DNA from: Escherichia coli
GTDB lineage: Bacteria; Pseudomonadota; Gammaproteobacteria; Enterobacterales; Enterobacteriaceae
Direction: 5' to 3' (one strand)
Assembly: GCF_009931435.1 (NCBI RefSeq)
Contig: NZ_CP043414.1
DNA: 64,000 bases
In this document: piece by piece, positions 1-18,626 of the stretch
Position numbering within the stretch: the first letter of the stretch is position 1
Layout: every line of letters begins with the position of its first letter
Program-made: the position numbers and the translations under genes
Notes under the pieces: generated by a model
What the model saw: the letters and a program-made list of their open reading frames with translations, nothing else
Database searches by the model: none
Told to the model about the DNA's origin: nothing

Positions 1-638
1 TCGCTAAGCTGGAATGACTGTTTTTCTTCGGTGTTGGTATTGCACAGGTTGTTGTTATCGCTAACAAAAAACCAGCACAGAATCCCCAACAAGATGTAAA
101 CCACACTATAGATGATAATGACCGTTTTCAGGCTGGCGCTGTCATCCGGTGCAAAGCGAGAAAAGACCCACATGGTAAACACCGCCAGCGACATTACACC
201 GACGCCGCGCAGCCCTTCCATCCAGCCCATAATTTTCCCTTGCTCGCTATGATCGCCAAGCAACGATGCGGCTTTAATCGACACCGACCACAGCATTAAA
301 ATCGTCGTTATCGCAAAGGCGACCTGAATACAGAGCATTACCCACAGCGGTGGATACGTTGCCATTAACAGACCCAGCAATCCGGTAATGATCATCGCGG
401 AAGTAATCATTTTGCGATGCGAAAATTTATCGGCAATAACGCCGCTGGGGGCATAAAGAATAATAGCCGCAATACCAAAGGTACTCATTATTAAACCTAT
501 CTCGGTATTGCTGAATCCCATAAATTTCGCCATGGGAATTTGATAAATATAACGTAAATAAGCCAGATCAAAACTAACGCCGCCACTAAAACTAATTATC
601 GCTAGGGTTATCCAACGGCGATATGAGTTGTGTTGCAT
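1..638 (-). CDS. yqcE: MFS-type transporter, N-terminal part only (gene continues past window start)
   Basis: Reverse-strand frame opens at ATG (complement of 636-638) and runs to position 1 without a stop; absent from the ORF track for that reason. N-terminus MQHNSYRRWITLAIISFSGG... is hydrophobic and transporter-like. Symbol assigned by synteny with ygcW, from memory. Confidence 0.55.
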   Translation of the reverse strand, partial: MQHNSYRRWITLAIISFSGGVSFDLAYLRYIYQIPMAKFMGFSNTEIGLIMSTFGIAAIILYAPSGVIADKFSHRKMITSAMIITGLLGLLMATYPPLWVMLCIQVAFAITTILMLWSVSIKAASLLGDHSEQGKIMGWMEGLRGVGVMSLAVFTMWVFSRFAPDDSASLKTVIIIYSVVYILLGILCWFFVSDNNNLCNTNTEEKQSFQLS

Positions 639-816
639 ATCGTATTCCCATTTGTAATAGACAAAAAAAAGAGAAAAGTAAGCCGCCCTTTCAGGTGGAT
701 TACTTTTCTCAGGTCTCTAGTAATTGCAATAAGAAATAACATGGAAAGCAGGGGGGTTGTGTGAGAGTAGTCACGCTTCTGCTTTTTAAAATTATTTGAT
801 AATACGAATATCACAC

Positions 817-832
817 TGTGATTACGATCACA
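817..832. promoter_or_regulatory. Candidate CRP-type operator (TGTGA-N6-TCACA)
   Basis: Sequence tgtgattacgatcaca is a perfect inverted repeat matching both CRP half-sites, in the divergent intergenic region between the MFS gene and ygcW. Confidence 0.4.
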
Positions 833-886
833 TTAGCGCTTATGCCCTTATGCTAAAAATTATCTCCAGTTACCAGAGATAATGAG

Positions 887-932
887 AAAGGTAACTTCCC
901 TCTCGCGGGGGAAGTTACCTTTCTTTTTTTTT
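887..932 (+). terminator. Intrinsic-terminator-like hairpin followed by a T9 run, about 25 nt upstream of the ygcW start
   Basis: aaaggtaacttccc / gggaagttaccttt form a 14-bp stem around an 8-nt loop, followed by c + ttttttttt. Lies in the leader of ygcW, not after a gene. Confidence 0.4.
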
Positions 933-956
933 GCCTTACGGAAATTGGAGCTAACT

Positions 957-1742
957 ATGTCAATCGAATCTCTCAATGCGTTCTCAATGGATCTTTTCTC
1001 CCTGAAAGGTAAAACCGCAATTGTTACCGGCGGGAATAGCGGTTTAGGCCAGGCATTTGCCATGGCGCTGGCAAAAGCAGGCGCAAATATCTTTATTCCA
1101 AGTTTCGTTAAAGATAATGGCGAAACAAAGGAAATGATTGAAAAACAGGGTGTTGAGGTGGACTTCATGCAGGTGGATATCACCGCAGAAGGCGCGCCGC
1201 AGAAGATAATTACCGCCTGTTGTGAACGTTTCGGCACCGTCGATATTCTGGTTAACAATGCCGGTATATGTAAGCTGAATAAGGTGCTGGATTTCGGTCG
1301 TGCCGACTGGGACCCGATGATTGACGTGAACCTGACCGCCGCATTCGAGTTAAGCTATGAAGCGGCAAAAATTATGATCCCGCAGAAAAGCGGTAAAATC
1401 ATTAATATCTGTTCATTATTCTCTTACTTAGGTGGTCAATGGTCACCTGCTTATTCTGCCACTAAACACGCCCTTGCCGGATTTACCAAAGCCTATTGCG
1501 ATGAATTAGGTCAATATAATATTCAGGTAAATGGTATTGCCCCAGGATATTACGCTACCGATATCACCCTGGCGACACGCAGTAATCCAGAAACCAATCA
1601 GCGCGTTCTTGATCATATTCCAGCAAACCGTTGGGGCGATACTCAGGATTTAATGGGCGCAGCCATATTTCTCGCAAGTCCGGCATCGAATTATGTCAAC
1701 GGGCATTTATTAGTGGTTGATGGCGGTTATTTAGTGCGCTAA
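957..1742 (+). CDS. ygcW: Short-chain dehydrogenase/reductase family oxidoreductase (261 aa)
   Basis: ORF-track frame 882..1742; start taken at ATG 957 with GGAG about 8 nt upstream. TGGNSGLG Rossmann motif and YSATK catalytic motif present. Confidence 0.85.
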   Translation: MSIESLNAFSMDLFSLKGKTAIVTGGNSGLGQAFAMALAKAGANIFIPSFVKDNGETKEMIEKQGVEVDFMQVDITAEGAPQKIITACCERFGTVDILVNNAGICKLNKVLDFGRADWDPMIDVNLTAAFELSYEAAKIMIPQKSGKIINICSLFSYLGGQWSPAYSATKHALAGFTKAYCDELGQYNIQVNGIAPGYYATDITLATRSNPETNQRVLDHIPANRWGDTQDLMGAAIFLASPASNYVNGHLLVVDGGYLVR

Positions 1743-1811
1743 TCCATAACGGTGGTTTCTGATTTCTTTTATTAATGACTATTCCATTTTTATTATCAGG
1801 AAGGAATTACT

Positions 1812-3266
1812 ATGTCTTTATCTCGCGCAGCGATTGTCGACCAGCTAAAGGAAATTGTTGGTGCAGATCGCGTAATTACCGATGAAACGGTATTGAAGAA
1901 AAACAGTATTGATCGTTTTCGTAAATTTCCGGATATTCATGGTATTTATACTTTGCCTATTCCGGCAGCGGTCGTAAAACTCGGTTCCACTGAGCAAGTG
2001 TCCCGTGTGCTGAATTTTATGAATGCACACAAAATTAACGGCGTACCACGTACCGGTGCTTCCGCTACCGAAGGCGGGCTGGAAACCGTTGTGGAAAACT
2101 CGGTGGTGCTTGATGGCTCTGCAATGAATCAAATCATTAATATTGATATAGAGAATATGCAGGCGACGGCGCAATGTGGCGTTCCGCTGGAAGTGCTGGA
2201 AAACGCGTTGCGTGAAAAAGGTTACACCACGGGGCACTCTCCGCAGTCAAAACCGTTGGCACAGATGGGGGGACTGGTGGCGACCCGTAGTATCGGGCAG
2301 TTCTCCACACTCTACGGCGCAATCGAGGATATGGTCGTTGGCCTGGAAGCAGTACTGGCTGATGGCACCGTGACACGCATTAAAAACGTGCCACGACGCG
2401 CGGCGGGTCCGGACATTCGTCACATCATCATCGGCAACGAAGGCGCATTGTGCTATATCACTGAAGTTACTGTGAAAATCTTTAAATTCACCCCGGAAAA
2501 CAACCTCTTCTACGGCTATATCCTGGAAGACATGAAAACCGGCTTCAACATCCTGCGTGAAATCATGGTGGAAGGATATCGTCCGTCGATCGCTCGTTTG
2601 TATGACGCTGAAGATGGCACCCAACACTTCACCCATTTTGCCGACGGAAAATGCGTGCTGATCTTTATGGCTGAAGGTAACCCTCGCATTGCGAAGGCGA
2701 CGGGCGAAGGGATTGCTGAAATCGTGGCACGTTACCCGCAATGCCAGCGCGTGGACAGCAAGCTGATCGAAACCTGGTTTAACAACCTGAACTGGGGACC
2801 GGATAAAGTGGCTGCCGAACGTGTGCAGATCCTCAAAACCGGCAACATGGGCTTTACCACCGAAGTCTCCGGCTGCTGGAGCTGCATCCACGAAATCTAC
2901 GAAAGTGTTATTAACCGTATTCGTACCGAGTTCCCACATGCCGACGACATCACTATGCTGGGCGGTCACTCTTCCCACAGCTATCAGAACGGCACCAACA
3001 TGTATTTTGTCTACGACTACAACGTTGTTGACTGTAAGCCGGAAGAGGAAATCGACAAATACCACAATCCGCTCAACAAAATCATCTGCGAAGAAACCAT
3101 TCGCCTCGGCGGTTCGATGGTACACCATCACGGTATCGGTAAACATCGTGTTCACTGGAGCAAACTGGAACACGGCAGCGCGTGGGCGTTGCTGGAAGGG
3201 CTGAAAAAGCAGTTCGATCCTAACGGCATTATGAATACGGGTACTATCTATCCGATTGAAAAATAA
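1812..3266 (+). CDS. ygcU: FAD-linked oxidase (PCMH-type FAD-binding domain, 484 aa)
   Basis: ORF track 1812..3266; full-length relative to the E. coli YgcU family as I recall it. Confidence 0.85.
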   Translation: MSLSRAAIVDQLKEIVGADRVITDETVLKKNSIDRFRKFPDIHGIYTLPIPAAVVKLGSTEQVSRVLNFMNAHKINGVPRTGASATEGGLETVVENSVVLDGSAMNQIINIDIENMQATAQCGVPLEVLENALREKGYTTGHSPQSKPLAQMGGLVATRSIGQFSTLYGAIEDMVVGLEAVLADGTVTRIKNVPRRAAGPDIRHIIIGNEGALCYITEVTVKIFKFTPENNLFYGYILEDMKTGFNILREIMVEGYRPSIARLYDAEDGTQHFTHFADGKCVLIFMAEGNPRIAKATGEGIAEIVARYPQCQRVDSKLIETWFNNLNWGPDKVAAERVQILKTGNMGFTTEVSGCWSCIHEIYESVINRIRTEFPHADDITMLGGHSSHSYQNGTNMYFVYDYNVVDCKPEEEIDKYHNPLNKIICEETIRLGGSMVHHHGIGKHRVHWSKLEHGSAWALLEGLKKQFDPNGIMNTGTIYPIEK

Positions 3267-3359
3267 TGTGTCAGGTAGCGTTTCGCGATGACGGGACGTT
3301 GCCTTTTCGGCTTCTCAACCGGGAAGCCGTTCTTATTACCGGACAATGAAGGGGTAAAG

Positions 3360-4697
3360 ATGAACACTTCACCGGTGCGAATGGATGATTTACCACTTAA
3401 CCGTTTTCACTGTCGAATTGCTGCGCTGACTTTCGGCGCACACCTGACCGACGGTTATGTTCTCGGCGTCATTGGTTACGCCATAATTCAGCTTACTCCA
3501 GCCATGCAACTGACGCCGTTTATGGCGGGAATGATCGGCGGCTCGGCGCTACTTGGCCTGTTTATCGGCAGCCTGGTTTTGGGCTGGATCTCCGACCATA
3601 TCGGGCGGCAAAAAATCTTCACCTTCAGCTTTATGCTGATTACACTCGCCTCGTTCCTGCAATTTTTTGCCACCACGCCAGAGCATCTTATTGGACTGCG
3701 CATTTTGATCGGCATTGGGCTGGGAGGCGATTACTCAGTAGGCCACACCTTGCTGGCTGAATTTTCTCCGCGCCGCCATCGCGGTATTTTGCTGGGCGCA
3801 TTCAGCGTGGTGTGGACCGTAGGCTATGTGCTGGCAAGTATTGCCGGACATCACTTTATTAGCGAAAGCCCCGAAGCCTGGCGATGGTTACTTGCATCGG
3901 CGGCATTTCCTGCCCTGTTGATTACGTTGTTACGTTGGGGAACGCCAGAATCGCCACGCTGGCTACTGCGCCAGGGGCGTTTTGCAGAAGCTCACGCTAT
4001 CGTGCATCGCTATTTTGGTCCCCATGTTTTACTGGGCGATGAAGTGGCAACGGCGACCCATAAACACATCAAAACCTTGTTCTCTTCGCGCTACTGGCGG
4101 CGCACGGCGTTTAACAGTGTCTTCTTTGTCTGCCTCGTAATCCCATGGTTTGTAATTTACACCTGGCTGCCAACTATCGCCCAGACTATTGGACTGGAAG
4201 ATGCGCTGACTGCCAGCCTGCTGCTTAACGCGTTATTAATTGTGGGTGCGCTGCTGGGATTATTTCTGACGCACCTGCTGGCACATCGCAAATTTTTACT
4301 TGGCAGTTTTTTGTTGCTGGCGGCAACGCTGGTAGTGATGGCCTGTTTGCCTTCTGGCTGTTCATTAACGCTGCTGCTTTTTGTTCTCTTCAGTACCACC
4401 ATTTCGGCAGTCAGTAATCTGGTGGGCATTTTGCCTGCGGAAAGTTTTCCTACTGACATTCGCTCGCTGGGCGTCGGTTTTGCCACCGCCATGAGTCGGT
4501 TGGGCGCGGCGGTAAGTACTGGCCTGCTGCCGTGGGTGCTGGCACAGTGGGGAATGCAAGTCACCTTATTGCTCCTGGCGGCAGTGTTGTTGGTTGGTTT
4601 TGTTGTGACCTGGCTATGGGCGCCAGAAACCAAAGCACTCCCGCTGGTGGCGGCGGGAAATGTAGGAGGTGTGAATGAACATTCTGTTAGCGTTTAA
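3360..4697 (+). CDS. ygcS: MFS transporter (445 aa)
   Basis: ORF-track frame 3288..4697; start taken at ATG 3360 (MNTSPVRMDDL...) behind AAGGGG. Multiple TM segments and GR(Q/K) MFS signatures. Confidence 0.8.
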   Translation: MNTSPVRMDDLPLNRFHCRIAALTFGAHLTDGYVLGVIGYAIIQLTPAMQLTPFMAGMIGGSALLGLFIGSLVLGWISDHIGRQKIFTFSFMLITLASFLQFFATTPEHLIGLRILIGIGLGGDYSVGHTLLAEFSPRRHRGILLGAFSVVWTVGYVLASIAGHHFISESPEAWRWLLASAAFPALLITLLRWGTPESPRWLLRQGRFAEAHAIVHRYFGPHVLLGDEVATATHKHIKTLFSSRYWRRTAFNSVFFVCLVIPWFVIYTWLPTIAQTIGLEDALTASLLLNALLIVGALLGLFLTHLLAHRKFLLGSFLLLAATLVVMACLPSGCSLTLLLFVLFSTTISAVSNLVGILPAESFPTDIRSLGVGFATAMSRLGAAVSTGLLPWVLAQWGMQVTLLLLAAVLLVGFVVTWLWAPETKALPLVAAGNVGGVNEHSVSV

Positions 4698-5454
4698 AGC
4701 CGAACCGGATGCCGGAATGCTGGCGGAAAAAGAGTGGCAGGCGGCGGCTCAGGGTAATAGCGGACCGGATGTTTCGCTGCTGCGAAGTTTACTCGGTGCT
4801 GATGAACAGGCCGCTGCCGCGCTTCTGTTAGCGCAGAGAAAAAACGGTACGCCGATGTCTTTAACCGCGTTGAGCATGGGGGATGAACGGGCGTTGCACT
4901 GGCTGCGCTATCTCATGGCTCTTGGGTTTGAGGAAGCTGTATTGCTGGAGACGGCGGCAGATCTGCGCTTTGCGCCGGAATTTGTCGCTCGCCATATTGC
5001 CGAATGGCAGCGCCAGAATCCGCTGGATCTGATCATTACTGGCTGCCAGAGCAGCGAAGGGCAGAACGGGCAAACGCCATTTTTGCTGGCGGAAATGCTG
5101 ACCTGGCCCTGTTTTACCCAGGTGGAGCGTTTTACTCTCGACGCACCGTTTATCTCGCTCGAACAGCGTACTGAACATGGATTACGCTGTTGTCGGGTTC
5201 GCTTGCCTGCGGTGATTGCCGTGCGCCAGTGTGGCGAGGTGGCCTTGCCAGTACCGGGAATGCGCCAGCGAATGGCTGCGGGGAAAGCTGAAATTATCCG
5301 CAAAACTGTTACTGCTGAATCGTCAGCGATGCAGTGCCGGCAACTGGAAAGGCCAGAGCAACGACGCGGTGCAACGCTTCTTGATGGGCAAACGGTAGCA
5401 GAAAAAGCGCAAAAGCTATGGCAGGACTATTTACGCCAAAGGATGCAGCCATGA
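4675..5454 (+). CDS. ygcR: Electron-transfer flavoprotein beta-subunit-like protein (FixA family, 259 aa)
   Basis: ORF track 4675..5454; its stop overlaps the ygcQ start (ATGA). Confidence 0.8.
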   Translation: MNILLAFKAEPDAGMLAEKEWQAAAQGNSGPDVSLLRSLLGADEQAAAALLLAQRKNGTPMSLTALSMGDERALHWLRYLMALGFEEAVLLETAADLRFAPEFVARHIAEWQRQNPLDLIITGCQSSEGQNGQTPFLLAEMLTWPCFTQVERFTLDAPFISLEQRTEHGLRCCRVRLPAVIAVRQCGEVALPVPGMRQRMAAGKAEIIRKTVTAESSAMQCRQLERPEQRRGATLLDGQTVAEKAQKLWQDYLRQRMQP

Positions 5455-6311
5455 ATATCGCCATTGTGACAATAAATCAGGAACATGCCGCAATAGCGGG
5501 CTGGCTGGCGGAGCAGGATTTCAGCGGCAGCACATTAACGCACTGGCAAATCGAGCCGCAGCCGATGGTCGCGGAACAGGTGCTGGATGCGCTGGTAGAA
5601 CAGTGGCAGCGAACGCCTGCGGACGTTGTTCTCTTTCCGCCGGGAACGTTTGGCGATGAACTGGCTACCCGCCTGTCCTGGCGTTTACATGGTGCCAGTA
5701 TATGCCAGGTGACTTCATTAAATATTCCAACCGGAAGCGTACGCAAATCCCAGTGGGGAAATGCGCTAACGGCGACGCTGCAAACAGAAAAACGCCCGCT
5801 ATGCCTTTCCCTTGCCCGCCAGGCGGGAGCAGTGAAAAATGCCACGTTGCCCTCTGGTATGCAGCAACTGAACATTGTCCCCGGCGCGCTTCCCGACTGG
5901 CTGGTTAGCACAGAGGATCTGAAAAATGTTACCCACGACCCATTAGCTGAGGCCAGACGGGTGCTGGTGGTGGGGCAGGGCGGAGAGGCAGATAACCAGG
6001 AAATCGCTATGCTGGCAGAAAAGCTGGGAGCCGAAGCGGGCTACAGTCGGGCGCGAGTAATGAACGGTGGCGTTGATGCCGAAAAAGTGATTGGTATTTC
6101 CGGACATCTGCTGGCACCTGAGGTGTGTATTGTTGTTGGCGCTTCCGGCGCAGCAGCGTTAATGGCGGGCGTCCGCAATAGCAAGTTTGTGGTGGCGATT
6201 AATCATGACGCCAGCGCGGCGGTATTTTCACAGGCAGATGTTGGCGTGGTAGATGACTGGAAAGCGGTGCTGGAGGCACTGGTGACAACCATTCACGCAG
6301 ATTGCCAATAA
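5451..6311 (+). CDS. ygcQ: Electron-transfer flavoprotein alpha-subunit-like protein (FixB family, 286 aa)
   Basis: ORF-track frame 5418..6311; start taken at ATG 5451 (MNIAIVT...) behind AAGGA, overlapping the ygcR stop. Confidence 0.8.
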   Translation: MNIAIVTINQEHAAIAGWLAEQDFSGSTLTHWQIEPQPMVAEQVLDALVEQWQRTPADVVLFPPGTFGDELATRLSWRLHGASICQVTSLNIPTGSVRKSQWGNALTATLQTEKRPLCLSLARQAGAVKNATLPSGMQQLNIVPGALPDWLVSTEDLKNVTHDPLAEARRVLVVGQGGEADNQEIAMLAEKLGAEAGYSRARVMNGGVDAEKVIGISGHLLAPEVCIVVGASGAAALMAGVRNSKFVVAINHDASAAVFSQADVGVVDDWKAVLEALVTTIHADCQ

Positions 6312-6317
6312 CGTGCT

Positions 6318-6423
6318 GCCGGATGATCCTGTCTACGGTTCTGGGCTGGGGACTGTAGGCCTGATAAGACGCGTCAAGCGTCGTATCAGGCGCTGAATGC
6401 CGGATTTGGCATGTGGCCTACAA
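6318..6423. repeat. REP/BIME cluster (repetitive extragenic palindromes)
   Basis: Contains tgtaggcctgataagacgcgtcaagcgtcgtatcaggcg and a second gccggat...ggcctaca unit, typical E. coli REP sequences, between convergent ygcQ and ygcP. Confidence 0.7.
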
Positions 6424-6456
6424 ATCAGACAAATTCAACTCGTTACGAGTATCCCG

Positions 6457-7032
6457 TCAAAGCAATTTTTTCGCTAACGTCCAGACCCCGGTATTCGTGG
6501 TGGAAAGCGCCACGACACCGGCGTTAATCGCATTACGCGCATCTTCTTCATCGCACACCAGCCCGCCAGCAATCAGCGGCTGGTGGATTTTCTCCGTTAC
6601 CCAGCCCAGCACTTTAGGCATACAGCCTGGCAGAATTTCAATACAATCAGGATTCGATTGCGCAACCTGCTTATCAATGTTGTGAAAAGAAATCGAGTCG
6701 ACAATAAACAAGCGATGAATACAGAAAAAGCCTTCCGCTCTCGCCGCTTTTAGCATTGACGCTTTGGTACTGATAATGCCGTCCGCCTCGGTCACCAGTT
6801 TCAGAAACTGAATTACTACTTCTTTATTTGATGCGCCTTCCAGCAAATCGACATGAATAAAGGCATATTTCCCGGCACTTTTAATCTTTTTGACGATATG
6901 ACTGATGGTGCAGATATTGCCGTATAACACGGAAATAAACTGGCATTCAGAATCGATTGCCAACTGCAGGCTGGCATTATCTTTAACGGCAGCAATCACC
7001 GGATTCTGGCGGAGCAGGTGTAAGAGGGGCAT
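6457..7032 (-). CDS. ygcP: GlpP-like glycerol-3-phosphate-responsive antiterminator family protein (191 aa)
   Basis: ORF track 6457..7032. Confidence 0.8.
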   Translation of the reverse strand: MPLLHLLRQNPVIAAVKDNASLQLAIDSECQFISVLYGNICTISHIVKKIKSAGKYAFIHVDLLEGASNKEVVIQFLKLVTEADGIISTKASMLKAARAEGFFCIHRLFIVDSISFHNIDKQVAQSNPDCIEILPGCMPKVLGWVTEKIHQPLIAGGLVCDEEDARNAINAGVVALSTTNTGVWTLAKKLL

Positions 7033-7048
7033 AAATTATCCTTATTAT

Positions 7049-7309
7049 TTATCCAAAGCGGTAGGTGATGCCGAATCCGGAAGGCGGATAGCGCCACTGT
7101 TGTAGGTTTTTTTCATCACACAGTAAACGGCAGGTGCCACACTCCAGGCAGCCGCGATAATCAACGCGTAAGTCGCCTTCCGGCGTGAGCGAAAAAAGAC
7201 CAGCCGGACAAGCGTTAATCAACCGTTCTGCCGTCTGGCGCTCAACGGAGTCTGCCGGAACAATATGTGGCGCATCAGCAGCGCGCCAGAGATTACGGGC
7301 TACAGACAT
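7049..7309 (-). CDS. ygcO: Ferredoxin-like protein (FixX family, 86 aa)
   Basis: ORF-track frame 7049..7345; start taken at internal ATG (MSVARNLW...) with AGGAG upstream. C-terminal CxxCxxC cluster (GCLECGTCRLLC). Confidence 0.75.
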   Translation of the reverse strand: MSVARNLWRAADAPHIVPADSVERQTAERLINACPAGLFSLTPEGDLRVDYRGCLECGTCRLLCDEKNLQQWRYPPSGFGITYRFG

Positions 7310-8571
7310 CGAATACTCCTGACAACATCGCCCGCCAGATGCCACAGGCCATGACGACGTAAATGACGCCAGAGCAACTGACGCAGCGGCGGAACAGGTT
7401 TATCACCCTGATCCCATAAATCACGGGAAATATCCTGCATTAACACAGGCCACTTACGGTACCATCCAGGGCGTTGCAAAAGCGCCGGAACATGCTGATA
7501 GCGCTGTAGAACATCCCACAGCAGGCTGCGCTCTACGTTGTAATGATAAAGCGGAAACAGATTTTGCGGCTCGCGGTGCTGGCAGGCGCTTATCAGCGTT
7601 TGTGCCGCCGCCTGTGCGCCAGCCAGCGCCATATCCATGCCGCGCACGGAAATTCCGGTATTGACGCAACTGCGCAACGTATCGCCCACCAGCAGCCAGC
7701 CGTTACCGGCGTATTGCACCGGCATACTGTGCAAGCCACCTTCTGGCACCAGATGCGCACCATACTCCAGTGATTCCGTGTTTTTGATAAGCGGGCGCAC
7801 TGCCGGATGCGTTTTAAAGCGAGCCAGCAGCTCGCTTGCCGGAACACGACTTTGCGTAAGTGAAGAGAGCGGGCAAACAATCCCTAACGAGAGCGTTTGT
7901 TGATTAGTATAAAGAAATGCGCCGCCGGGTAAGTCATCACAGATTCCGCCGCTGAACAGCAACGCTGCGCCTTCGTTATTCTCCAGATGAAAACGTTCTT
8001 CAATAGCGGATGTTTCCAGTGAAAGAACTTCTTTGATCCCCAACGCCATCGCTTCGCCAGCAGGACGAGTCACTAACCCGTGACGCTCAGCCAGGACGCT
8101 GTTGGCACCTTCTGCCAGCGCCACATAACGGGCGCGGAGAATATCGTCACCGCAAATGACACCACACACCCTGCCGTTTTCTTCATACAGCGCATCTACC
8201 GTCGCACCAGGGATGCATTCGACACCTTCTTTTTCGGCTTCGGCAACCAGCCACGGATCGAACCGTGCACGTAATACGCTCCAGGATTCACCGCCGGGCT
8301 GTAAGCTGGAAAACGTCGTTGCGCCATCCGGCGTTAGCAGAGAAAGACTTTCGTGAGTGATGCGTCGTTCAAGAGGCGCGGTCAGGTGAAACTGAGGGAG
8401 GAGTTCCGCGAGCGCATGGGTGTATAAACGCCCGCCGGAAAGGTTTTTACTGCCGGGAATTTCAGCGCGTTCCAGTAACAGAACGGATAAACCTGCCCGC
8501 GCGCAGCGTAAAGCACAAGCGGTGCCTGCTATACCCGCACCAATAATAATAATGTCGCAGTCGTCTTCCAT
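7300..8571 (-). CDS. ygcN: FAD-dependent oxidoreductase (FixC family, 423 aa)
   Basis: ORF-track frame 7300..8601 (GTG); start taken at ATG 8571 (MEDDCDIIIIGAGIAG... dinucleotide-binding motif). Confidence 0.8.
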   Translation of the reverse strand: MEDDCDIIIIGAGIAGTACALRCARAGLSVLLLERAEIPGSKNLSGGRLYTHALAELLPQFHLTAPLERRITHESLSLLTPDGATTFSSLQPGGESWSVLRARFDPWLVAEAEKEGVECIPGATVDALYEENGRVCGVICGDDILRARYVALAEGANSVLAERHGLVTRPAGEAMALGIKEVLSLETSAIEERFHLENNEGAALLFSGGICDDLPGGAFLYTNQQTLSLGIVCPLSSLTQSRVPASELLARFKTHPAVRPLIKNTESLEYGAHLVPEGGLHSMPVQYAGNGWLLVGDTLRSCVNTGISVRGMDMALAGAQAAAQTLISACQHREPQNLFPLYHYNVERSLLWDVLQRYQHVPALLQRPGWYRKWPVLMQDISRDLWDQGDKPVPPLRQLLWRHLRRHGLWHLAGDVVRSIRCL

Positions 8572-8648
8572 GTCATGCCCCAGATATCCAGAGCGCAACA
8601 CCCTAACATAGCGTTACTTAAGGGAAATTGACCGCCGACACACTCTTA

Positions 8649-9014
8649 TCATTCGCCGCGATAGATGCAACCTGCGGTGCAGGTTTCTTTCACCATAACC
8701 GCACTTAACAGCGGAACAACCGGTTTAACCTGATTCCAAATCCATTTTGCTAAAACCTCGCTGGTCGGGTTTTCCAGGCCAGGAATATCATTGAGATAAT
8801 AGTGATCGAGGCGATCATAGGTTGGTTTAAATGCCGCTTTCAGTTCAGCGAAATCGATAATCCAGCCCGTATGCGGATCGACTTCCCCGGTAATTTCCAG
8901 TCGCACCATAAAGGAATGCCCGTGCAGGCGACCACATTTATGTCCTTCCGGGACGTGTGGTAAGCGGTGAGCGGCTTCGAAGGTGAAATCTTTAAATAAC
9001 GTGGTGGACATCAT
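8649..9014 (-). CDS. queD: 6-carboxy-5,6,7,8-tetrahydropterin synthase (121 aa)
   Basis: ORF-track frame 8649..9098; start at [20 protein letters not shown]... matches the QueD N-terminus as I recall it. Confidence 0.9.
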
Positions 9015-9329
9015 AATTTCTCTACATGACGATAAAACCGCCGTAGAGTACCGGAAAGGCTTTTTTTTCGCATTATCTAAAACGACTTTGTTGCGCAAAA
9101 TCGCTGATTTATCTTAATGATTGGCTAAATTCATTTGTTTTTCATTGGGTTGGTTAATCTGTTTTGTTGTTAAAGACTATTGCTAAAACAGGTTAGTCGA
9201 TTTGGTTATTAGTTATCGCTATCCCGTCTTTAATCCACACCGTTCACCCCGTTAACCTTACCTTCTCTTCTGTTTTATGGGCGCTGACAGGGCGCAGAAA
9301 CAGCTTTGCTTACTGGAACATAACGACGC

Positions 9330-11135
9330 ATGACGACACAGGTCCCACCTTCCGCGTTGCTTCCGTTGAACCCGGAGCAACTGGCACGCCTTCAGGCGGC
9401 CACGACCGATTTAACTCCCACCCAGCTTGCCTGGGTTTCTGGCTATTTCTGGGGCGTGCTCAACCAACAGCCTGCTGCGCTTACAGCGACGCCAGCGCCC
9501 GCCCCCGCCGCAGAAATGCCGGGTATAACTATTATCTCCGCTTCGCAAACCGGCAATGCGCGCCGGGTTGCTGAAACATTACGCGATGATTTATTAGCGG
9601 CAAAACTGAACGTTAAGCTGGTGAACGCGGGCGACTATAAATTCAAACAAATCGCCAGCGAAAAACTGCTCATCGTGGTGACGTCAACGCAAGGTGAAGG
9701 GGAACCGCCGGAGGAGGCCGTCGCGCTGCATAAGTTCCTGTTCTCCAAAAAAGCGCCGAAGCTGGAAAACACCGCGTTTGCTGTGTTTAGTCTCGGCGAT
9801 AGCTCTTATGAATTTTTCTGCCAGTCCGGGAAAGATTTTGACAGCAAGCTGGCGGAACTGGGCGGTGAACGCCTGCTCGACCGTGTCGATGCCGACGTTG
9901 AATACCAGGCTGCTGCCATCGAGTGGCGCGCCCGCGTGGTTGATGTTCTGAAGTCCCGTACGCCTGTCGCGGCACCTTCGCAATCCGTCGCTACTGGCGC
10001 GGTAAATGAAATCCACACCAGCCCGTACAGCAAAGACGCGCCGCTGGTGGCGAGCCTCTCTGTTAACCAGAAAATTACCGGGCGTAACTCTGAAAAAGAC
10101 GTTCGCCATATCGAAATTGACTTAGGTGACTCGGGCCTGCGTTACCAGCCGGGTGACGCGCTGGGCGTCTGGTATCAGAACGATCCGGCACTGGTGAAAG
10201 AACTTGTCGAACTGCTGTGGCTGAAAGGCGATGAACCTGTCACCGTCGAGGGCAAAACGTTACCTCTGAACGAGGCCCTACAGTGGCACTTCGAACTGAC
10301 CGTCAACACCGCCAACATCGTTGAGAACTACGCCACGCTTACCCGCAGTGAAACGCTGCTGCCGCTGGTGGGCGATAAAGCGAAGTTACAGCATTACGCC
10401 GCGACGACGCCGATTGTCGATATGGTGCGTTTCTCTCCGGCACAGCTTGACGCTGAAGCCCTCATTAACTTGCTGCGCCCGCTGACGCCGCGCCTGTATT
10501 CCATCGCCTCCTCGCAGGCGGAAGTCGAGAACGAAGTACACGTCACCGTTGGTGTCGTTCGTTATGACATTGAAGGCCGCGCCCGTGCCGGTGGTGCCTC
10601 TAGTTTCCTCGCGGATCGTGTGGAAGAAGAGGGCGAAGTCCGCGTCTTTATCGAACATAACGACAACTTCCGTCTGCCAGCCAACCCGGAAACGCCGGTG
10701 ATTATGATTGGTCCAGGCACCGGCATCGCGCCGTTCCGCGCCTTTATGCAGCAACGTGCTGCTGACGAAGCGCCGGGTAAAAACTGGCTGTTCTTTGGCA
10801 ACCCACACTTTACGGAAGATTTCCTCTATCAGGTGGAGTGGCAGCGCTACGTCAAAGAGGGCGTGCTGACACGTATCGATCTTGCCTGGTCGCGCGATCA
10901 AAAAGAAAAAATTTACGTACAAGACAAACTGCGCGAACAGGGCGCAGAGCTGTGGCGCTGGATCAATGACGGAGCCCACATTTATGTCTGCGGCGACGCT
11001 AATCGCATGGCGAAAGACGTTGAACAGGCACTTCTGGAAGTGATTGCCGAATTTGGTGGCATGGACACCGAAGCGGCGGATGAATTTTTAAGTGAGCTGC
11101 GCGTAGAGCGCCGTTATCAGCGAGATGTCTACTAA
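9330..11135 (+). CDS. cysJ: Sulfite reductase [NADPH] flavoprotein alpha subunit
   Basis: ORF track 9330..11135; N-terminus [24 protein letters not shown]... is CysJ, with flavodoxin and FAD/NADPH domains. Confidence 0.95.
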
Positions 11136-12847
11136 TGAACGAAAAACATCCAGGGCCTTTAGTGGTCGAAGGAAAACTGACAGACGCCGAGCGCATGAAG
11201 CTTGAGAGCAACTACCTGCGCGGGACCATTGCGGAAGATTTAAACGACGGTCTGACCGGCGGCTTTAAGGGCGACAACTTCCTGCTGATCCGTTTCCACG
11301 GTATGTATCAGCAGGATGACCGCGATATCCGCGCCGAACGTGCTGAACAGAAGCTGGAACCGCGTCATGCGATGCTGCTGCGCTGCCGTCTGCCGGGTGG
11401 GGTGATCACCACTAAACAGTGGCAGGCAATTGATAAATTCGCCGGTGAAAACACCATTTATGGCAGCATTCGCCTGACCAACCGCCAGACGTTCCAGTTC
11501 CACGGCATTCTGAAAAAGAACGTCAAACCGGTGCACCAGATGCTGCACTCGGTCGGTCTTGATGCGCTGGCGACCGCCAACGACATGAACCGTAATGTAC
11601 TCTGCACCTCGAACCCATTTGAATCTCAGTTGCACGCGGAAGCGTATGAGTGGGCGAAGAAAATCTCTGAACATCTGCTGCCGCGAACCCGCGCCTATGC
11701 GGAGATCTGGCTCGATCAGGAGAAAGTCGCCACTACTGACGAAGAACCGATCCTCGGTCAGACCTATCTGCCGCGTAAATTCAAAACCACGGTAGTGATC
11801 CCGCCGCAGAACGATATCGATCTGCACGCCAACGACATGAACTTTGTGGCGATCGCGGAAAACGGCAAGCTGGTGGGCTTCAACCTGCTGGTGGGCGGTG
11901 GGCTTTCTATCGAACACGGCAACAAGAAAACCTACGCCCGCACGGCGAGTGAGTTTGGTTATCTGCCGCTGGAGCATACGCTGGCGGTGGCGGAAGCCGT
12001 CGTGACAACTCAGCGCGACTGGGGTAACCGAACCGATCGTAAAAATGCCAAAACCAAATACACGCTGGAGCGCGTGGGGGTCGAGACGTTTAAAGCAGAA
12101 GTGGAACGTCGCGCGGGGATCAAATTTGAGCCGATCCGTCCATATGAATTTACCGGGCGCGGCGATCGTATCGGCTGGGTAAAAGGGATCGACGACAAAT
12201 GGCACCTGACGCTGTTTATCGAAAATGGCCGAATTCTTGATTATCCGGGGCGTCCGCTGAAAACCGGCCTGCTGGAGATCGCGAAGATCCACAAAGGTGA
12301 TTTCCGCATTACGGCGAACCAGAATCTGATCATCGCTGGTGTACCGGAAAGCGAGAAAGCGAAGATTGAGAAGATCGCCAAAGAGAGCGGATTGATGAAT
12401 GCCGTCACGCCGCAGCGCGAAAACTCAATGGCCTGCGTGTCATTCCCGACTTGCCCGTTGGCGATGGCGGAAGCGGAGCGTTTCCTGCCGTCGTTTATCG
12501 ATAACATCGATAATTTAATGGCGAAACATGGTGTCAGCGATGAGCACATCGTGATGCGTGTAACAGGCTGCCCGAACGGTTGTGGTCGCGCGATGCTGGC
12601 GGAAGTTGGCCTGGTGGGTAAAGCGCCGGGTCGCTACAACCTGCATCTTGGTGGCAACCGCATTGGGACACGTATCCCACGGATGCATAAAGAAAACATC
12701 ACCGAGCCGGAAATCCTGGCGACGCTTGATGAACTGATAGGGCGCTGGGCGAAAGAACGTGAAGCGGGTGAAGGCTTCGGCGACTTTACGGTGCGTGCGG
12801 GCATCATTCGCCCGGTGCTCGATCCGGCGCGTGATTTGTGGGATTAA
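11135..12847 (+). CDS. cysI: Sulfite reductase [NADPH] hemoprotein beta subunit
   Basis: ORF track 11135..12847; start overlaps the cysJ stop (TAATG). Confidence 0.95.
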
Positions 12848-12861
12848 CCATCAGTCCAGTC

Positions 12862-12920: not shown

Positions 12921-13655
12921 ATGTCCAAACTCGATCTAAATGCCCTGAACGAACTGCCGAAGGTAGATCGCATTCTGGCGCTGGCGGAAACTAACGCCGA
13001 GCTTGAAAAACTGGATGCTGAAGGCCGTGTTGCCTGGGCGCTGGATAATCTGCCCGGTGAATATGTGCTTTCTTCCAGCTTCGGTATCCAGGCGGCGGTT
13101 AGTCTGCATCTGGTGAATCAGATTCGCCCGGATATTCCGGTGATCCTCACCGATACCGGTTATCTGTTTCCGGAAACCTACCGCTTTATTGACGAGTTAA
13201 CGGACAAACTCAAGCTCAACCTGAAAGTGTACCGCGCTACCGAAAGCGCCGCCTGGCAGGAAGCACGCTACGGCAAACTGTGGGAGCAGGGCGTTGAAGG
13301 CATTGAAAAGTACAACGATATCAACAAAGTCGAACCGATGAACCGGGCGCTGAAAGAACTGAACGCACAAACGTGGTTTGCTGGCCTGCGCCGTGAACAA
13401 TCCGGCAGCCGCGCTAATTTACCGGTGTTGGCAATTCAGCGTGGCGTATTTAAAGTGCTGCCGATTATCGACTGGGATAACCGAACTATTTATCAGTATC
13501 TGCAAAAACATGGCCTGAAATATCACCCATTATGGGACGAAGGATATTTATCGGTTGGTGATACCCATACAACCCGTAAATGGGAACCTGGTATGGCGGA
13601 AGAAGAAACGCGTTTCTTTGGCTTAAAAAGGGAATGTGGGCTGCACGAAGGGTAA
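12921..13655 (+). CDS. cysH: Phosphoadenosine phosphosulfate (PAPS) reductase (244 aa)
   Basis: ORF-track frame 12759..13655 runs through the REP element; start taken at ATG 12921 ([15 protein letters not shown]...) behind GAGGAA. Confidence 0.95.
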
Positions 13656-13672
13656 ATATTGCCGGATAAAAT

Positions 13673-13710
13673 AAACGCCTCTGTCAGAAATGATGGGGGC
13701 GTTTTTATTT
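13673..13710 (+). terminator. Candidate intrinsic terminator after cysH
   Basis: aaacgcc...ggcgttt stem followed by tttattttg. The loop is long, so confidence is modest. Confidence 0.4.
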
Positions 13711-13918
13711 TGCGAGCCGCATTCCGGCATTTAAACATGAATATAGCAGGGGAAATCAACAGTTATAGAATGGCGTCGGGTGCTTGAGGCTGTCTGGCGT
13801 TGAGCATTCGCGAGGTTCCAGATGGACAAAAGCCCCGGGCGATATTTCTATCAACCTGAGGCTCGCGTTCGAACGTAGCAATTCGAATGTTAGTCTCTTC
13901 TTTGCAGGGAGGCAAGAC

Positions 13919-14071
13919 ATGCTGACAAAATATGCCCTTGTGGCAATCATCGTACTGTGTTGTACAGTACTGGGATTCACGCTGATGGTAGGCGACTCGT
14001 TGTGTGAGTTGAGTATCAGAGAACGTGGTATGGAGTTTAAGGCAGTTCTCGCTTACGAACCGAAGAAGTAG
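13919..14071 (+). CDS. Hok/Gef-family type I toxin (50 aa, HokE-like); likely the hok of a hokX/sokX-type locus
   Basis: [50 protein letters not shown] has a single TM helix and the Hok signature SLCE...AYE. GGGAGG sits 6 nt before the ATG. Confidence 0.7.
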
Positions 14072-14076
14072 CCACC

Positions 14077-14098
14077 ACGCGGGGGTAAAACCCCGCGT
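14077..14098 (+). other. GC-rich stem-loop at the 3-prime end of the hok transcript
   Basis: acgcgggg gtaaaa ccccgcgt, an 8-bp perfect stem immediately after the hok stop. Confidence 0.4.
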
Positions 14099-14109
14099 AT
14101 TGAATTGTG

Positions 14110-14309
14110 ATGGTTTGGTCTCCTGCACCCTTTTTTTCATTTATATTGTTTTTGTGAATATTATGCCTGTGTTTATTATTTATATATATCACAGATGAAA
14201 ATCATTGAATTATTCATAATGTAAATATTTTATTGAACGATATATATCACAGATAATTTTTAATATATGCGTAAATATCCTTTAAGTTTTACTGAAGGAT
14301 AAAAACATT
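14110..14309 (+). promoter_or_regulatory. AT-rich cas3 upstream region with a tandem direct repeat
   Basis: About 200 bp of very AT-rich sequence; atatatatcacagat occurs twice about 60 bp apart (near 14182 and 14242). Confidence 0.35.
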
Positions 14310-16967: not shown

Positions 16968-17063
16968 TATGCCTGCGACAGGATTCTCTGAATAGTTGAT
17001 ACACAAAAAAGGATGGAAGGATGGATAACCGACCTGGGATGGTCTTTTTACGAGAGGATGCGT

Positions 17064-18626
17064 ATGAACTCGTTTTCACTTCTGACAACCCCGTGGTTGC
17101 CCGTTCGTTATAAAGACGGAACGACAGGCAAACTGGCGCCAGTCGATCTGGCGGATGAAAATGTTGTCGATATCGCTGCGCCGCGGGCAGATCTCCAGGG
17201 TGCGGCATGGCAGTTTTTGCTGGGACTACTACAAACCAGCTTCGCGCCCAAAAATCACGGTCGTTGGGATGATATATGGGAAGACGGACTGGAAGCTGAA
17301 AAGCTAAGGGAAGCATTGCTGTCTTTAGAACATGCTTTCCAGTTTGGCCCAGATTCCCCTTCATTTATGCAGGATTTCGAGGCGCTTACGGGAGATAAAG
17401 TTCCTGTCGCTTCGTTACTGCCTGAAATTCCCGGCGCTCAAACAACGAAGTTCAATAAAGACCACTTTATTAAGCGTGGCGTGACTGAACACATATGCCC
17501 TCATTGTTCCGCGTTAGCGCTGTTTTCCCTACAGTTAAATGCGCCGTCAGGCGGCAAAGGCTATCGCACCGGTTTGCGCGGCGGTGGGCCAATGACGACG
17601 CTGATTGAATTACAGGAATATCAGGGCAATCAACAAACACCCTTGTGGCGCAAACTGTGGCTCAACGTGATGCCGCAGGATGAATCTGACTTACCGCTAC
17701 CCAAAAAATTTGGCGATCTGGTTTTCCCCTGGCTTGGCCCGACGCGTACCAGTGAACTGGCCGGTGCGGTGGTAACTGATGATCAGGTCAACAAACTCCA
17801 GGCGTACTGGGGAATGCCTCGGCGCATACGTGTTGATTTTAATACCACGACAGTCGGCAACTGCGATATTTGCGGTGAGCAGAGCGACGCGCTCCTGAGC
17901 CTGATGACGACCAAAAATTACGGTGCGAATTATGCCATGTGGCAGCATCCCTTAACGCCCTACCGTATACCACTTAAAGAGGGCGGCGAGCTTTACTCGG
18001 TTAAACCACAACCGGGCGGTTTAATCTGGCGCGACTGGCTAGGACTTATCGAAACGGGTAAGTCAGAAAACAATACGGAACTTCCCGCGCTGGTGGTGAA
18101 ACTCTTTAATGCCAGCAGTCTGAAACAGGCAAAAGTGGGCCTGTGGGGATTTGGCTATGATTTCGACAACATGAAAGCGCGCTGTTGGTACGAACACCAT
18201 TTCCCGCTACTGCTCAATAAAAAAGAAGGCCAGATACCAAAGCTGCGGCTGGCTGCGCAAACGGCTTCACGGATTCTAAGTCTGTTACGGAGTGCATTGA
18301 AAGAAGCATGGTTCTCCGATCCAAAAGGTGCACGGGGTGATTTCAGTTTTGTGGATATCGACTTCTGGAACAAAACTCAGCATCGCTTCCTGAGGTTAGT
18401 GCGTCAAATTGAAGAAGGTCAGGAGCCGGATGAATTACTCAGCAAATGGCAAAAGGAAATGTGGTTATTCGCGCGTCAGGATTTTGACGAGCGGGTATTC
18501 ACTAATCCTTATGAGCCCGTTGATTTGAAACGCGTCATGACCGCGCGCAAGAAATATTTTACAACATCGGCGGAGAAGCAAAGTGCTAAAGCCGCCAGGG
18601 AGAAAAAGCAGGAGGCTGCTGAATGA
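17064..18626 (+). CDS. casA: Type I-E Cascade large subunit Cse1/CasA
   Basis: ORF-track frame 17013..18626; start taken at ATG 17064 (MNSFSLLTTPWLPV...) with GAGG 6 nt upstream. ATG 17058 is an alternative. Confidence 0.8.
   Translation: MNSFSLLTTPWLPVRYKDGTTGKLAPVDLADENVVDIAAPRADLQGAAWQFLLGLLQTSFAPKNHGRWDDIWEDGLEAEKLREALLSLEHAFQFGPDSPSFMQDFEALTGDKVPVASLLPEIPGAQTTKFNKDHFIKRGVTEHICPHCSALALFSLQLNAPSGGKGYRTGLRGGGPMTTLIELQEYQGNQQTPLWRKLWLNVMPQDESDLPLPKKFGDLVFPWLGPTRTSELAGAVVTDDQVNKLQAYWGMPRRIRVDFNTTTVGNCDICGEQSDALLSLMTTKNYGANYAMWQHPLTPYRIPLKEGGELYSVKPQPGGLIWRDWLGLIETGKSENNTELPALVVKLFNASSLKQAKVGLWGFGYDFDNMKARCWYEHHFPLLLNKKEGQIPKLRLAAQTASRILSLLRSALKEAWFSDPKGARGDFSFVDIDFWNKTQHRFLRLVRQIEEGQEPDELLSKWQKEMWLFARQDFDERVFTNPYEPVDLKRVMTARKKYFTTSAEKQSAKAAREKKQEAAE

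Follow-up and report, generated by a model that had tools for sequence, protein, structure and literature searches.

What the ygc genes of Escherichia coli do, and which of them carry the function, is a question raised by about ten adjacent genes of unknown function that are found in ∼94% of complete E. coli genomes. The copy analyzed here lies at the start of a 64,000-nucleotide stretch of E. coli contig NZ_CP043414.1 (assembly GCF_009931435.1), hereafter called the window. Full-text queries of the literature up to 2026 with all ygc gene names retrieved zero functional studies; YgcRQ were listed as "of unknown function" in a 2022 review (PMC9329746), and ygcU was treated as an uncharacterized FAD oxidoreductase without a phenotype in a 2026 paper (PMC13012123). 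An original prediction made from the letters of this stretch had stated that the physiological substrate is not established, and this still stands, as no paper assigning a substrate was found in the literature up to 2026. The answer put forward here, tentatively and at somewhat less than an even chance, is that the ygc locus is a substrate-inducible catabolic system, in which a conserved set of enzymes is controlled by a leader RNA switch and served in some lineages by an added electron-transfer module.

Gene content was taken from the list of open reading frames, from profile scans with Pfam and NCBIfam, and from the best-matching E. coli genome as annotated in RefSeq, in which the gene names were identical. 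Since these sources agreed, the gene families named in the original prediction were confirmed, including the flanking short-chain dehydrogenase (SDR), FAD-linked oxidase, and major facilitator superfamily (MFS) genes, the GlpP-family regulator on the opposite strand, and, by profile matches, the FixC/FixX-like nature of ygcN and ygcO. The interval it had delimited, 957 to 8571, holds eight genes but omits yqcE (window 1 to 638), ygcE, which lies beyond the window, and the regulatory region at 663 to 932. As part of the tentative answer given above, the locus would be laid out as two divergent operons, yqcE-ygcE and ygcW-U-S-R-Q, plus a third unit, ygcN-O-P.

To define the distribution of the cluster, an alignment of YgcU homologues was searched against 100,044 species genomes, 80 loci were retained, and the cluster proteins were mapped onto these by tblastn. 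Loci were found in Enterobacterales, Desulfobacterota, SAR324, Bacillota, and Actinomycetota. YgcU was encoded in every retained locus (64 to 85% identity across phyla) and was almost always accompanied by a YgcW-like SDR (63 to 85%) and a YgcE-like FGGY kinase (43 to 59%). A YgcP-like regulator (39 to 76% identity) was present in most loci; Desulfobacterota loci were without YgcP, one of them carrying a GntR regulator, and one bacillus locus carried a sigma-54 activator. The electron-transfer flavoprotein (ETF) subunits YgcR and YgcQ shared only ∼30% identity with the window proteins and were often missing. Of 35 full enterobacterial loci, 11 had no ETF genes. Loci without them came from Pantoea, Erwinia, Izhakiella, Ewingella, and several Serratia and, elsewhere, from Halobacillus, Thalassobacillus, Virgibacillus, and Saccharopolyspora/Prauserella. 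Among the mapped loci, YgcN and YgcO were found in Enterobacterales only. In the minimal loci of Serratia proteamaculans and Halobacillus halophilus, the pathway-like genes were limited to those for a transporter, the SDR, the kinase, YgcU, and a GlpP-type regulator. Outside the enteric bacteria, the cluster transporters were of the BCCT or OpuAC type, and MttB-family methyltransferases were also linked to the cluster.

Constraint on the ETF genes was also much weaker. Within Escherichia, all genes were under purifying selection, with dN/dS ratios of 0.006 to 0.18; the values for ygcR and ygcQ were 0.13 to 0.18, compared with 0.006 to 0.04 for ygcU, ygcW, and ygcP (0.008 to 0.044 for ygcW). 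Comparisons of ygcS and ygcQ with Klebsiella and Citrobacter were left out due to alignment or ortholog-extension failure. As judged from gene content and identity, the conserved core of the system is YgcW, YgcU, and YgcE, usually with YgcP and a transporter. The ETF/FixCX set is, on the same comparison, a lineage-specific accessory module and not the center of the system, because its distribution is patchy and the ETF genes are under weaker constraint. Lineages that keep the ETF/quinone chain have, as far as is known, an anaerobic or facultative lifestyle.

How expression of the core is controlled was examined in the divergent intergenic region. Two copies of a leader RNA motif were identified, one in the 5′ untranslated region of ygcW (copy 1; 866 to 932, + strand) and one in that of yqcE (copy 2; 727 to 663, − strand). 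A terminator scan of copy 1 located a GC-rich 19-bp terminator hairpin at 884 to 925 followed by T9, ending 25 nucleotides upstream of the ygcW ATG; the copy had a fold z-score of −7, and its antiterminator helix, GTTACC/GGTAAC, overlaps the terminator stem. Copy 2, as read from the sequence, has the layout AATTACTAGAG..GAGAAAAGTAAT..hairpin..CTTACTTTTCTC-T8, and its ATTAC/GTAAT pairing covaries with GTTAC/GTAAC of copy 1. A covariance model of the motif, R1, scored copy 1 at 75.6 bits (E value, 1.3e−14) and copy 2 at 70.8 bits (E value, 1.8e−13), and these were its only hits over the 64-kb window. A search of Rfam with positions 640 to 1000 matched no family; the top hit reached 22.9 bits, whereas its gathering score is 100.

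Alignment of upstream regions revealed that the leader element is kept far beyond the enteric bacteria, with the consensus (A/G)TTAC - AGAG - N3-6 - GAGAAA(A/G)GTAA(C/T) - variable hairpin - CTTTTCTC - T7-9, and a regular-expression search identified 87 instances across the loci. In a 49-sequence leader alignment, A2, 93.9% of the cells in the antiterminator helix were paired, compared with 16 to 54% in slid-partner controls, and compensatory changes occurred in five of its seven pairs, such as ATTAC/GTAAT in the yqcE copies and GTCGC/GCGAC in Saccharopolyspora. For the terminator, 88% of cells were paired and 8 of 17 pairs were compensatory. As columns 36 to 42 are common to both structures, the antiterminator and the terminator are mutually exclusive. 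Of the loci searched, R1 found the motif in all 28 that have a gene for a YgcP homologue, while the 22 lacking such a gene gave no match. It lay directly 5′ of SDR, yqcE-like MFS, BCCT, and YgcU genes and, in one locus, of an MttB-family methyltransferase gene. In a metagenome scan with the leader pattern, which is specific and says nothing about canonical glp genes, the matches listed were mostly enteric ygc loci, with a few chance or phage matches.

Between the two leaders lies a perfect TGTGA-N6-TCACA CRP site, TGTGATTACGATCACA, at 817 to 832 (no strand assigned). Both leader RNAs and this site are kept across enterobacterial genera. Regulatory information found in the literature amounted to a CRP site for yqcE/ygcW predicted by PhyloScan (PMC1794230) and a listing of yqcE-ygcE as Crp activated (PMC8085971). 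Centering the site at −41.5 would put the start of the ygcW transcript at approximately 866, where the leader motif begins. The putative binder of both leaders is YgcP, encoded at 6457 to 7032 on the − strand, which matched PF04309 over profile positions 1 to 173 of 173 (E value, 2.2e−62). Because YgcP is homologous to 3kts, a GlpP-family structure, along its whole length (residues 11 to 184), it is a likely partner of the ygc leaders.

The best-known relative of this arrangement is the glp regulon of Bacillus subtilis, where GlpP acts on leader terminators of glpD, glpFK, and glpTQ. GlpP binds leader RNA when loaded with glycerol-3-phosphate. As in that regulon, a regulator of the PF04309 (G3P_antiterm) family is paired with operons that each open with a leader, in which a terminator competes with a short upstream helix; this helix closes a purine-rich loop and shares sequence with the 5′ arm of the terminator. 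Catabolite control is laid on top in both, by CRP for ygc and by CcpA in Bacillus (PMC9604022). Canonical glp leaders beside glpP-glpF-glpK-glpD in Priestia and Lysinibacillus share the layout of the ygc leader, yet they scored only 10 to 15 bits with R1, compared with 50 to 76 bits for ygc-type leaders; for this reason, the ygc leader is classed as a distinct variant of the GlpP-type leader. Its consensus differs, YgcP-type proteins form a subfamily of their own (at least 55% identical among themselves), and the genes under ygc leaders are not glpF, glpK, or glpD.

The canonical glpF and glpD leaders beside glpP were located at 7600 to 7700 and 10170 to 10265 in one locus (L206) and at 5170 to 5255 and 7590 to 7700 in another (L207). 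They start with AAGTT(A/C)ATA at the 5′ end (AAGTTAATA) and have a short helix overlapping the terminator arm. Repeated GGAGA or UGAG (GAG) units occur in the loops of three of these four leaders; the loop of Lysinibacillus glpF is purine rich (UUAGGAAAAGGAAC). A general "GlpP leader" RNA family is probably definable. In Listeria, the 14.5-kb stretch around glpP holds no glp genes and no leader motif.

One clue to the chemistry is YgcU (1812 to 3266, + strand), which combines a vanillyl-alcohol oxidase (VAO)-type FAD-binding domain (FAD_binding_4, PF01565) with a cap domain (FAD-oxidase_C, PF02913), the domain layout of alkyl-dihydroxyacetonephosphate synthase (ADPS, or AGPS). When the YgcU family profile was searched against PDB, ADPS entries were the best solved relatives (E value, 2e−56), followed by glycolate oxidase and D-lactate dehydrogenase types, including the ETF-dependent LctD (8e−37 or weaker). 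Foldseek also ranked AGPS first with an AlphaFold model of YgcU (mean pLDDT, 68; built from a 14-sequence alignment). YgcU was thus placed in the ADPS/AGPS branch of the VAO family. ADPS residues Arg419/Arg352, Tyr578/Tyr508, and the His615-617 loop align with R262, Y398, and H438-440 of YgcU, and the ADPS positions are fixed unambiguously by two mutant structures, 4bc7 (Arg419His) and 4bca (Tyr578Phe). All of these residues were invariant in alignment A1, which holds 14 YgcU homologues from four phyla that are 71 to 85% identical to the window protein. YgcU also has HHHGIG where GlcD-type 2-hydroxyacid dehydrogenases have EHGxG, a motif that is retained as EHGVG in a GlcD-like paralogue found in many clusters of anaerobes. 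In LDHD and D2HGDH structures, the Glu of EHGxG is a metal ligand. The catalytic roles of the aligned ADPS residues have been described, and the enzyme abstracts the C1 proton of a 1-O-substituted dihydroxyacetone phosphate (DHAP), forms an adduct at flavin N5, and exchanges the substituent in a redox-neutral reaction (PMC3509576).

The other two core enzymes fit such a substrate. YgcW, the SDR encoded at 957 to 1742 on the + strand, was closest to KduD and gluconate-5-dehydrogenase by Pfam, NCBIfam, and PDB neighbors. These families oxidize the carbon adjoining a terminal CH2OH. YgcE is an FGGY kinase closest to xylulokinase and autoinducer-2 (AI-2) kinase, which phosphorylate a terminal hydroxyl; its gene follows yqcE in the same orientation, outside the window start, in the RefSeq annotation of the match. 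Acting on R-CH2-CHOH-CH2OH, YgcW and YgcE would be expected to give R-CH2-CO-CH2-OPO3, which is a 1-substituted DHAP and the kind of compound that ADPS handles. Uptake could be provided by two MFS transporters. YqcE (1 to 638, − strand; only the 5′ part, with the ATG at 638 to 636, as the gene is truncated by the window start) had a weak NCBIfam match to the D-galactonate transporter subfamily, and its gene adjoins ygcW in every enterobacterial locus mapped. YgcS (3288 to 4697, + strand) is of the sugar-porter/aromatic-acid symporter type by Pfam and NCBIfam.

In the original prediction, the electron-transfer genes were said to resemble an electron-bifurcating ETF-quinone oxidoreductase module. 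In bifurcating ETFs, the EtfB motif DGDTAQVGP recognizes the bifurcating FAD (b-FAD), and it is missing in nonbifurcating ETFs (eLife 2022, PMC9232219). YgcR (4675 to 5454, + strand), a divergent ETF beta by Pfam, reads EGQNGQTPF at this position, and every ETF beta encoded beside a YgcU homologue was of the EG(D/Q)N type (EGQNGQTPF or EGDNGKTP). The nearest PDB entries of YgcR were the nonbifurcating human and Paracoccus ETFs. YgcQ (5451 to 6311, + strand) is a short ETF alpha of 286 amino acids, in which the N-terminal ETF domain was matched only in part by Pfam; its nearest entry was the 294-amino-acid ETF alpha of 5ow0, also nonbifurcating. Scores with the FixA and FixB models were low, at 32.6 bits for YgcR (cutoff, 219) and 63 bits for YgcQ (cutoff, 549). 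With the b-FAD motif missing, a bifurcating ETF was rejected for YgcRQ. The bifurcation claim was thus not borne out, and neither was the placing of the ETF/FixCX set at the center of the system, given the many loci without ETF genes and the restriction of FixCX to Enterobacterales.

The partners of this ETF are encoded on the − strand. YgcN (7300 to 8571) is a FixC-like FAD protein that exceeded the cutoff for the ETFQO_UQ-bd domain (PF21162; 30.6 bits; cutoff, 27.7) and scored below threshold with FixC (360 bits; cutoff, 610) and PRK10015 (379 bits; cutoff, 466). YgcO (7049 to 7309) is a FixX-like ferredoxin (NCBIfam FixX, 82 bits; cutoff, 166) whose translation has the cysteine pattern CP...CxxCxxCxxxC. 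Together, they have the features of a FixCX-type ETF:quinone oxidoreductase, and from these scores they are best described as relatives of the FixC and FixX families, not equivalogs. The most economical reading of the module would be a nonbifurcating chain from YgcU to YgcRQ, YgcNO, and quinone. Two known systems invite comparison. In Ldh-EtfAB of Acetobacterium woodii (LctBCD), a VAO flavoenzyme gene likewise stands beside EtfB and EtfA, and LctD and LctC were among the PDB matches; however, the ETF beside YgcU lacks the b-FAD motif, YgcU is ADPS-like rather than LctD-like, and YgcQ is too short for the extra N-terminal ferredoxin domain of LctC (418 amino acids; PMC9232219). The FixABCX/EtfABCX complexes, including E. 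coli fixABCX and ydiQRST, share the four-gene content of an ETF plus CX, and their FixC and FixX have homologues in YgcN and YgcO, which carry the quinone-binding domain and the ferredoxin cysteines. They differ in that YgcR and YgcQ are only distant relatives of FixA and FixB without the bifurcation motif, that ygcN and ygcO are transcribed apart from the ETF genes and together with the regulator gene, and that within the ygc cluster family the CX module is limited to Enterobacterales.

A separate arrangement was observed in seven clostridial loci, where a second ETF beta with DGDT(A/G)QV follows a GlcD-like oxidase, away from YgcU; second ETFs were recorded in L055, L056, L058, L059, L062, L080, L083, and L084, around 13200 to 15600 in most. 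The GlcD-like FAD oxidase and second ETF form an Ldh-EtfAB-like module within the same cluster, which suggests a 2-hydroxyacid as a pathway product in the anaerobes.

Taken together, the substrate-inducible catabolic system favored here would work as follows, its regulatory part being drawn from sequence and comparison. One CRP site would serve both divergent promoters, and each transcript would open with a two-way leader, in which an intrinsic terminator competes with a short antiterminator helix that sequesters the terminator 5′ arm. By analogy with GlpP and glycerol-3-phosphate, YgcP loaded with a phosphorylated intermediate of the pathway would bind the purine-rich loop (AGAG...GAGAAAA) and allow read-through. 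The compound imported by YqcE and/or YgcS would be small and hydrophilic and would end in a vicinal diol, a 1-substituted glycerol being the simplest case. YgcW would oxidize its penultimate carbon, and YgcE would phosphorylate the terminal hydroxyl to give a 1-substituted DHAP analogue. YgcU could then act at the carbon beside the ketone through the ADPS-type Tyr, Arg, and His-loop residues and its flavin, freeing the substituent and leaving a product at the triose-phosphate level; net oxidation may or may not accompany this step. Reduced YgcU flavin would be reoxidized by YgcRQ as a dedicated nonbifurcating ETF, and YgcNO would hand the electrons to the quinone pool, a branch that may matter when O2 is lacking. 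Turnover of YgcU with net oxidation would explain the ETF, while the minimal clusters without ETF genes fit turnover without net oxidation, as in ADPS.

Several observations weigh against this proposal. Loci outside the enteric bacteria use BCCT/OpuAC transporters and enteric ones MFS, and the enteric substrate may therefore differ from that of other phyla. Binding of the leaders by YgcP is deduced solely from co-occurrence and family analogy. The ADPS assignment has gaps of its own. R447 of Dictyostelium ADPS, a second Arg and the third catalytic residue, had no confident counterpart in the YgcU alignment. YgcU (484 amino acids) aligned only from chain residue 137 of the Dictyostelium and 180 of the guinea pig enzyme, so that the first 130 to 180 residues of ADPS are absent and, of the N-terminal region and gating domain that belong to the fatty-chain channel, the N-terminal region is missing. 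The AlphaFold model of YgcU is of modest quality. YgcU is also encoded in a catabolic operon with transporters for soluble substrates and is genetically coupled to an ETF. As no external electron acceptor is required for ADPS chemistry, this coupling agrees no less well with a simple dehydrogenase.

A possible, though rather unlikely, identity for YgcU is that of an ordinary dehydrogenase linked to an ETF, like GlcD, LctD, or D-2-hydroxyglutarate dehydrogenase. It would oxidize a D-2-hydroxyacid or a polyol phosphate made by YgcE and YgcW, and two electrons would reach quinone by way of YgcRQ and YgcNO, with the ADPS-like residues merely binding a phosphorylated substrate. The position of the ETF-beta/alpha pair directly 3′ of YgcU homologues in most ETF-bearing loci agrees with this, as does the fact that VAO-type 2-hydroxyacid dehydrogenases are known ETF partners (e.g., LctD in the matched PDB entry 7qh2). 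ETF and FixCX are also missing mainly from loci of particular taxa, which are presumably aerobic or plant associated and in which O2 could be the acceptor. Two features count against this identity: YgcU matches ADPS far better than it does GlcD- or LDHD-type enzymes, and it carries HHHGIG in place of EHGxG. A bifurcating complex of the FixABCX/EtfABCX type, which would oxidize NADH and pass one electron each to quinone and to a low-potential acceptor, thereby driving a difficult reduction in the pathway, is very unlikely. YgcN and YgcO are clear relatives of FixC and FixX, the four-gene content mirrors fixABCX and ydiQRST, and FixAB of E. coli serve a reductive step in carnitine metabolism, as cited in the 2022 review (PMC9329746). 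Against this stand the replacement of DGDTAQVGP in YgcR, the low FixA/FixB scores, the nonbifurcating nearest structures, the short YgcQ with its partly matched N-terminal domain, and the occurrence of DGDTAQV-type ETF beta in some clostridial loci only as the second ETF and not beside YgcU.

The least probable reading, to which hardly any weight is given, sees the cluster of Escherichia as cryptic or as a decaying remnant that has no function at present. It would account for the lack of any reported phenotype or substrate in the literature up to 2026 and for ETF genes that evolve about ten times faster at nonsynonymous sites than ygcU and ygcW. However, the eight genes are intact, the 12-kb stretch is present (coverage of at least 80%) in 5089 of 5426 complete E. 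coli genomes, and the CRP site, like the two leader RNAs, is kept across enterobacterial genera; a decaying pseudogene cluster was rejected, as every gene is under purifying selection.

A bolder version of the catabolic reading can also be framed, although it is doubtful as a whole. In this version, the SDR and kinase would turn a glyceryl ether or other 1-O-substituted glycerol into a substituted DHAP, a flavin adduct on YgcU would free DHAP, the substrate in Bacillota would be a quaternary-ammonium glyceryl compound, enteric bacteria would take a related nonlipid glyceryl compound, and the leader would represent a new phylum-spanning class of GlpP-family riboregulators. The BCCT/OpuAC transporters and MttB-family methyltransferases, some of them behind the same riboregulator, suggest a quaternary-ammonium substrate that includes a glycerol-like moiety. 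Speculatively, a candidate for Bacillota would be the head group that remains after deacylation of DGTS betaine lipids, glyceryl-trimethylhomoserine; a literature query on the deacylated betaine-lipid head group as a substrate retrieved nothing. The leader lies directly 5′ of the MttB-family methyltransferase gene in L070 (13972 to 14030, − strand) and of BCCT genes in L062 (4457 to 4520, − strand; 4708 to 4764, + strand) and L002 (16415 to 16473, + strand), which would place quaternary-amine uptake and demethylation in one regulon in Bacillota.

Further features were recorded at the locus itself. The ygcS and ygcR genes overlap by 23 nucleotides, ygcR and ygcQ by 4, and ygcN and ygcO by 10, and these overlapping stops and starts suggest translational coupling. 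A terminator scan identified a GC-rich 9-bp hairpin at 3308 to 3329, followed by TTCTTATT, inside the annotated N terminus of ygcS. The region from 3267 to 3360 extends from the ygcU stop to an internal ygcS ATG at 3360 (MNTSPV...). This ATG may be the true start of ygcS, the annotated 469-amino-acid start at 3288 lying too far upstream, and the hairpin could be an intraoperon attenuator or RNA-stability element. In the convergent gap between ygcQ and ygcP (6311 to 6457), an imperfect palindrome resembling a REP element (GCCTGATAAGACGCGTCAAGCGTCGTATCAGGC) was found. The ygc genes are followed by queD and cysJIH. In the closest annotated E. coli genome (L001), a Hok/Gef toxin gene and a frameshifted cas3 lie downstream of cysH (16916 to 17991), and a CRISPR array lies upstream of ygcE.

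Comparison with three loci (L001, L007, and L008) identified positions 1 to 12850 of the window as a mosaic. Relative to E. coli strain R32_14_1F, the genes from ygcR through queD were identical or nearly so (dS, 0 to 0.01), and ygcW, ygcU, ygcS, cysJ, and cysI were at a dS of 0.05 to 0.14. Relative to typical E. coli (E69), the dS of ygc genes was 0.27 to 0.60, equal to or above the distance to E. albertii, and the 12-kb stretch was only 90 to 95% identical in most E. coli genomes. YgcU was 100% identical to that of "Escherichia sp. MOD1-EC7003." The window probably derives from a divergent Escherichia lineage with recombination at the ygc locus.

The ygc cluster was already known as a set of uncharacterized genes. 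What this analysis adds is its conserved core, the ADPS-like character of YgcU, the predicted nonbifurcating nature of its ETF, and a leader RNA that spans phyla and is paired with a GlpP-family regulator. That RNA ranges from Enterobacterales to Actinomycetota without an Rfam family, and to our knowledge the ygc-type leader would be the sole GlpP-family riboregulator described in E. coli. The proposal makes testable predictions: a defined cis-RNA switch, directly usable as a reporter for the inducer; a substrate class of vicinal-diol compounds or 1-substituted glycerols converted to a DHAP-like ketose phosphate; an unusual flavin chemistry in YgcU; and a nonbifurcating ETF, YgcRQ, that feeds quinone. 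If the ADPS-like reaction is true, it would be a new reaction type in the bacterial catabolism of carbohydrates and lipid head groups, and YgcU-type enzymes would represent the first catabolic use of alkyl-DHAP-synthase chemistry.

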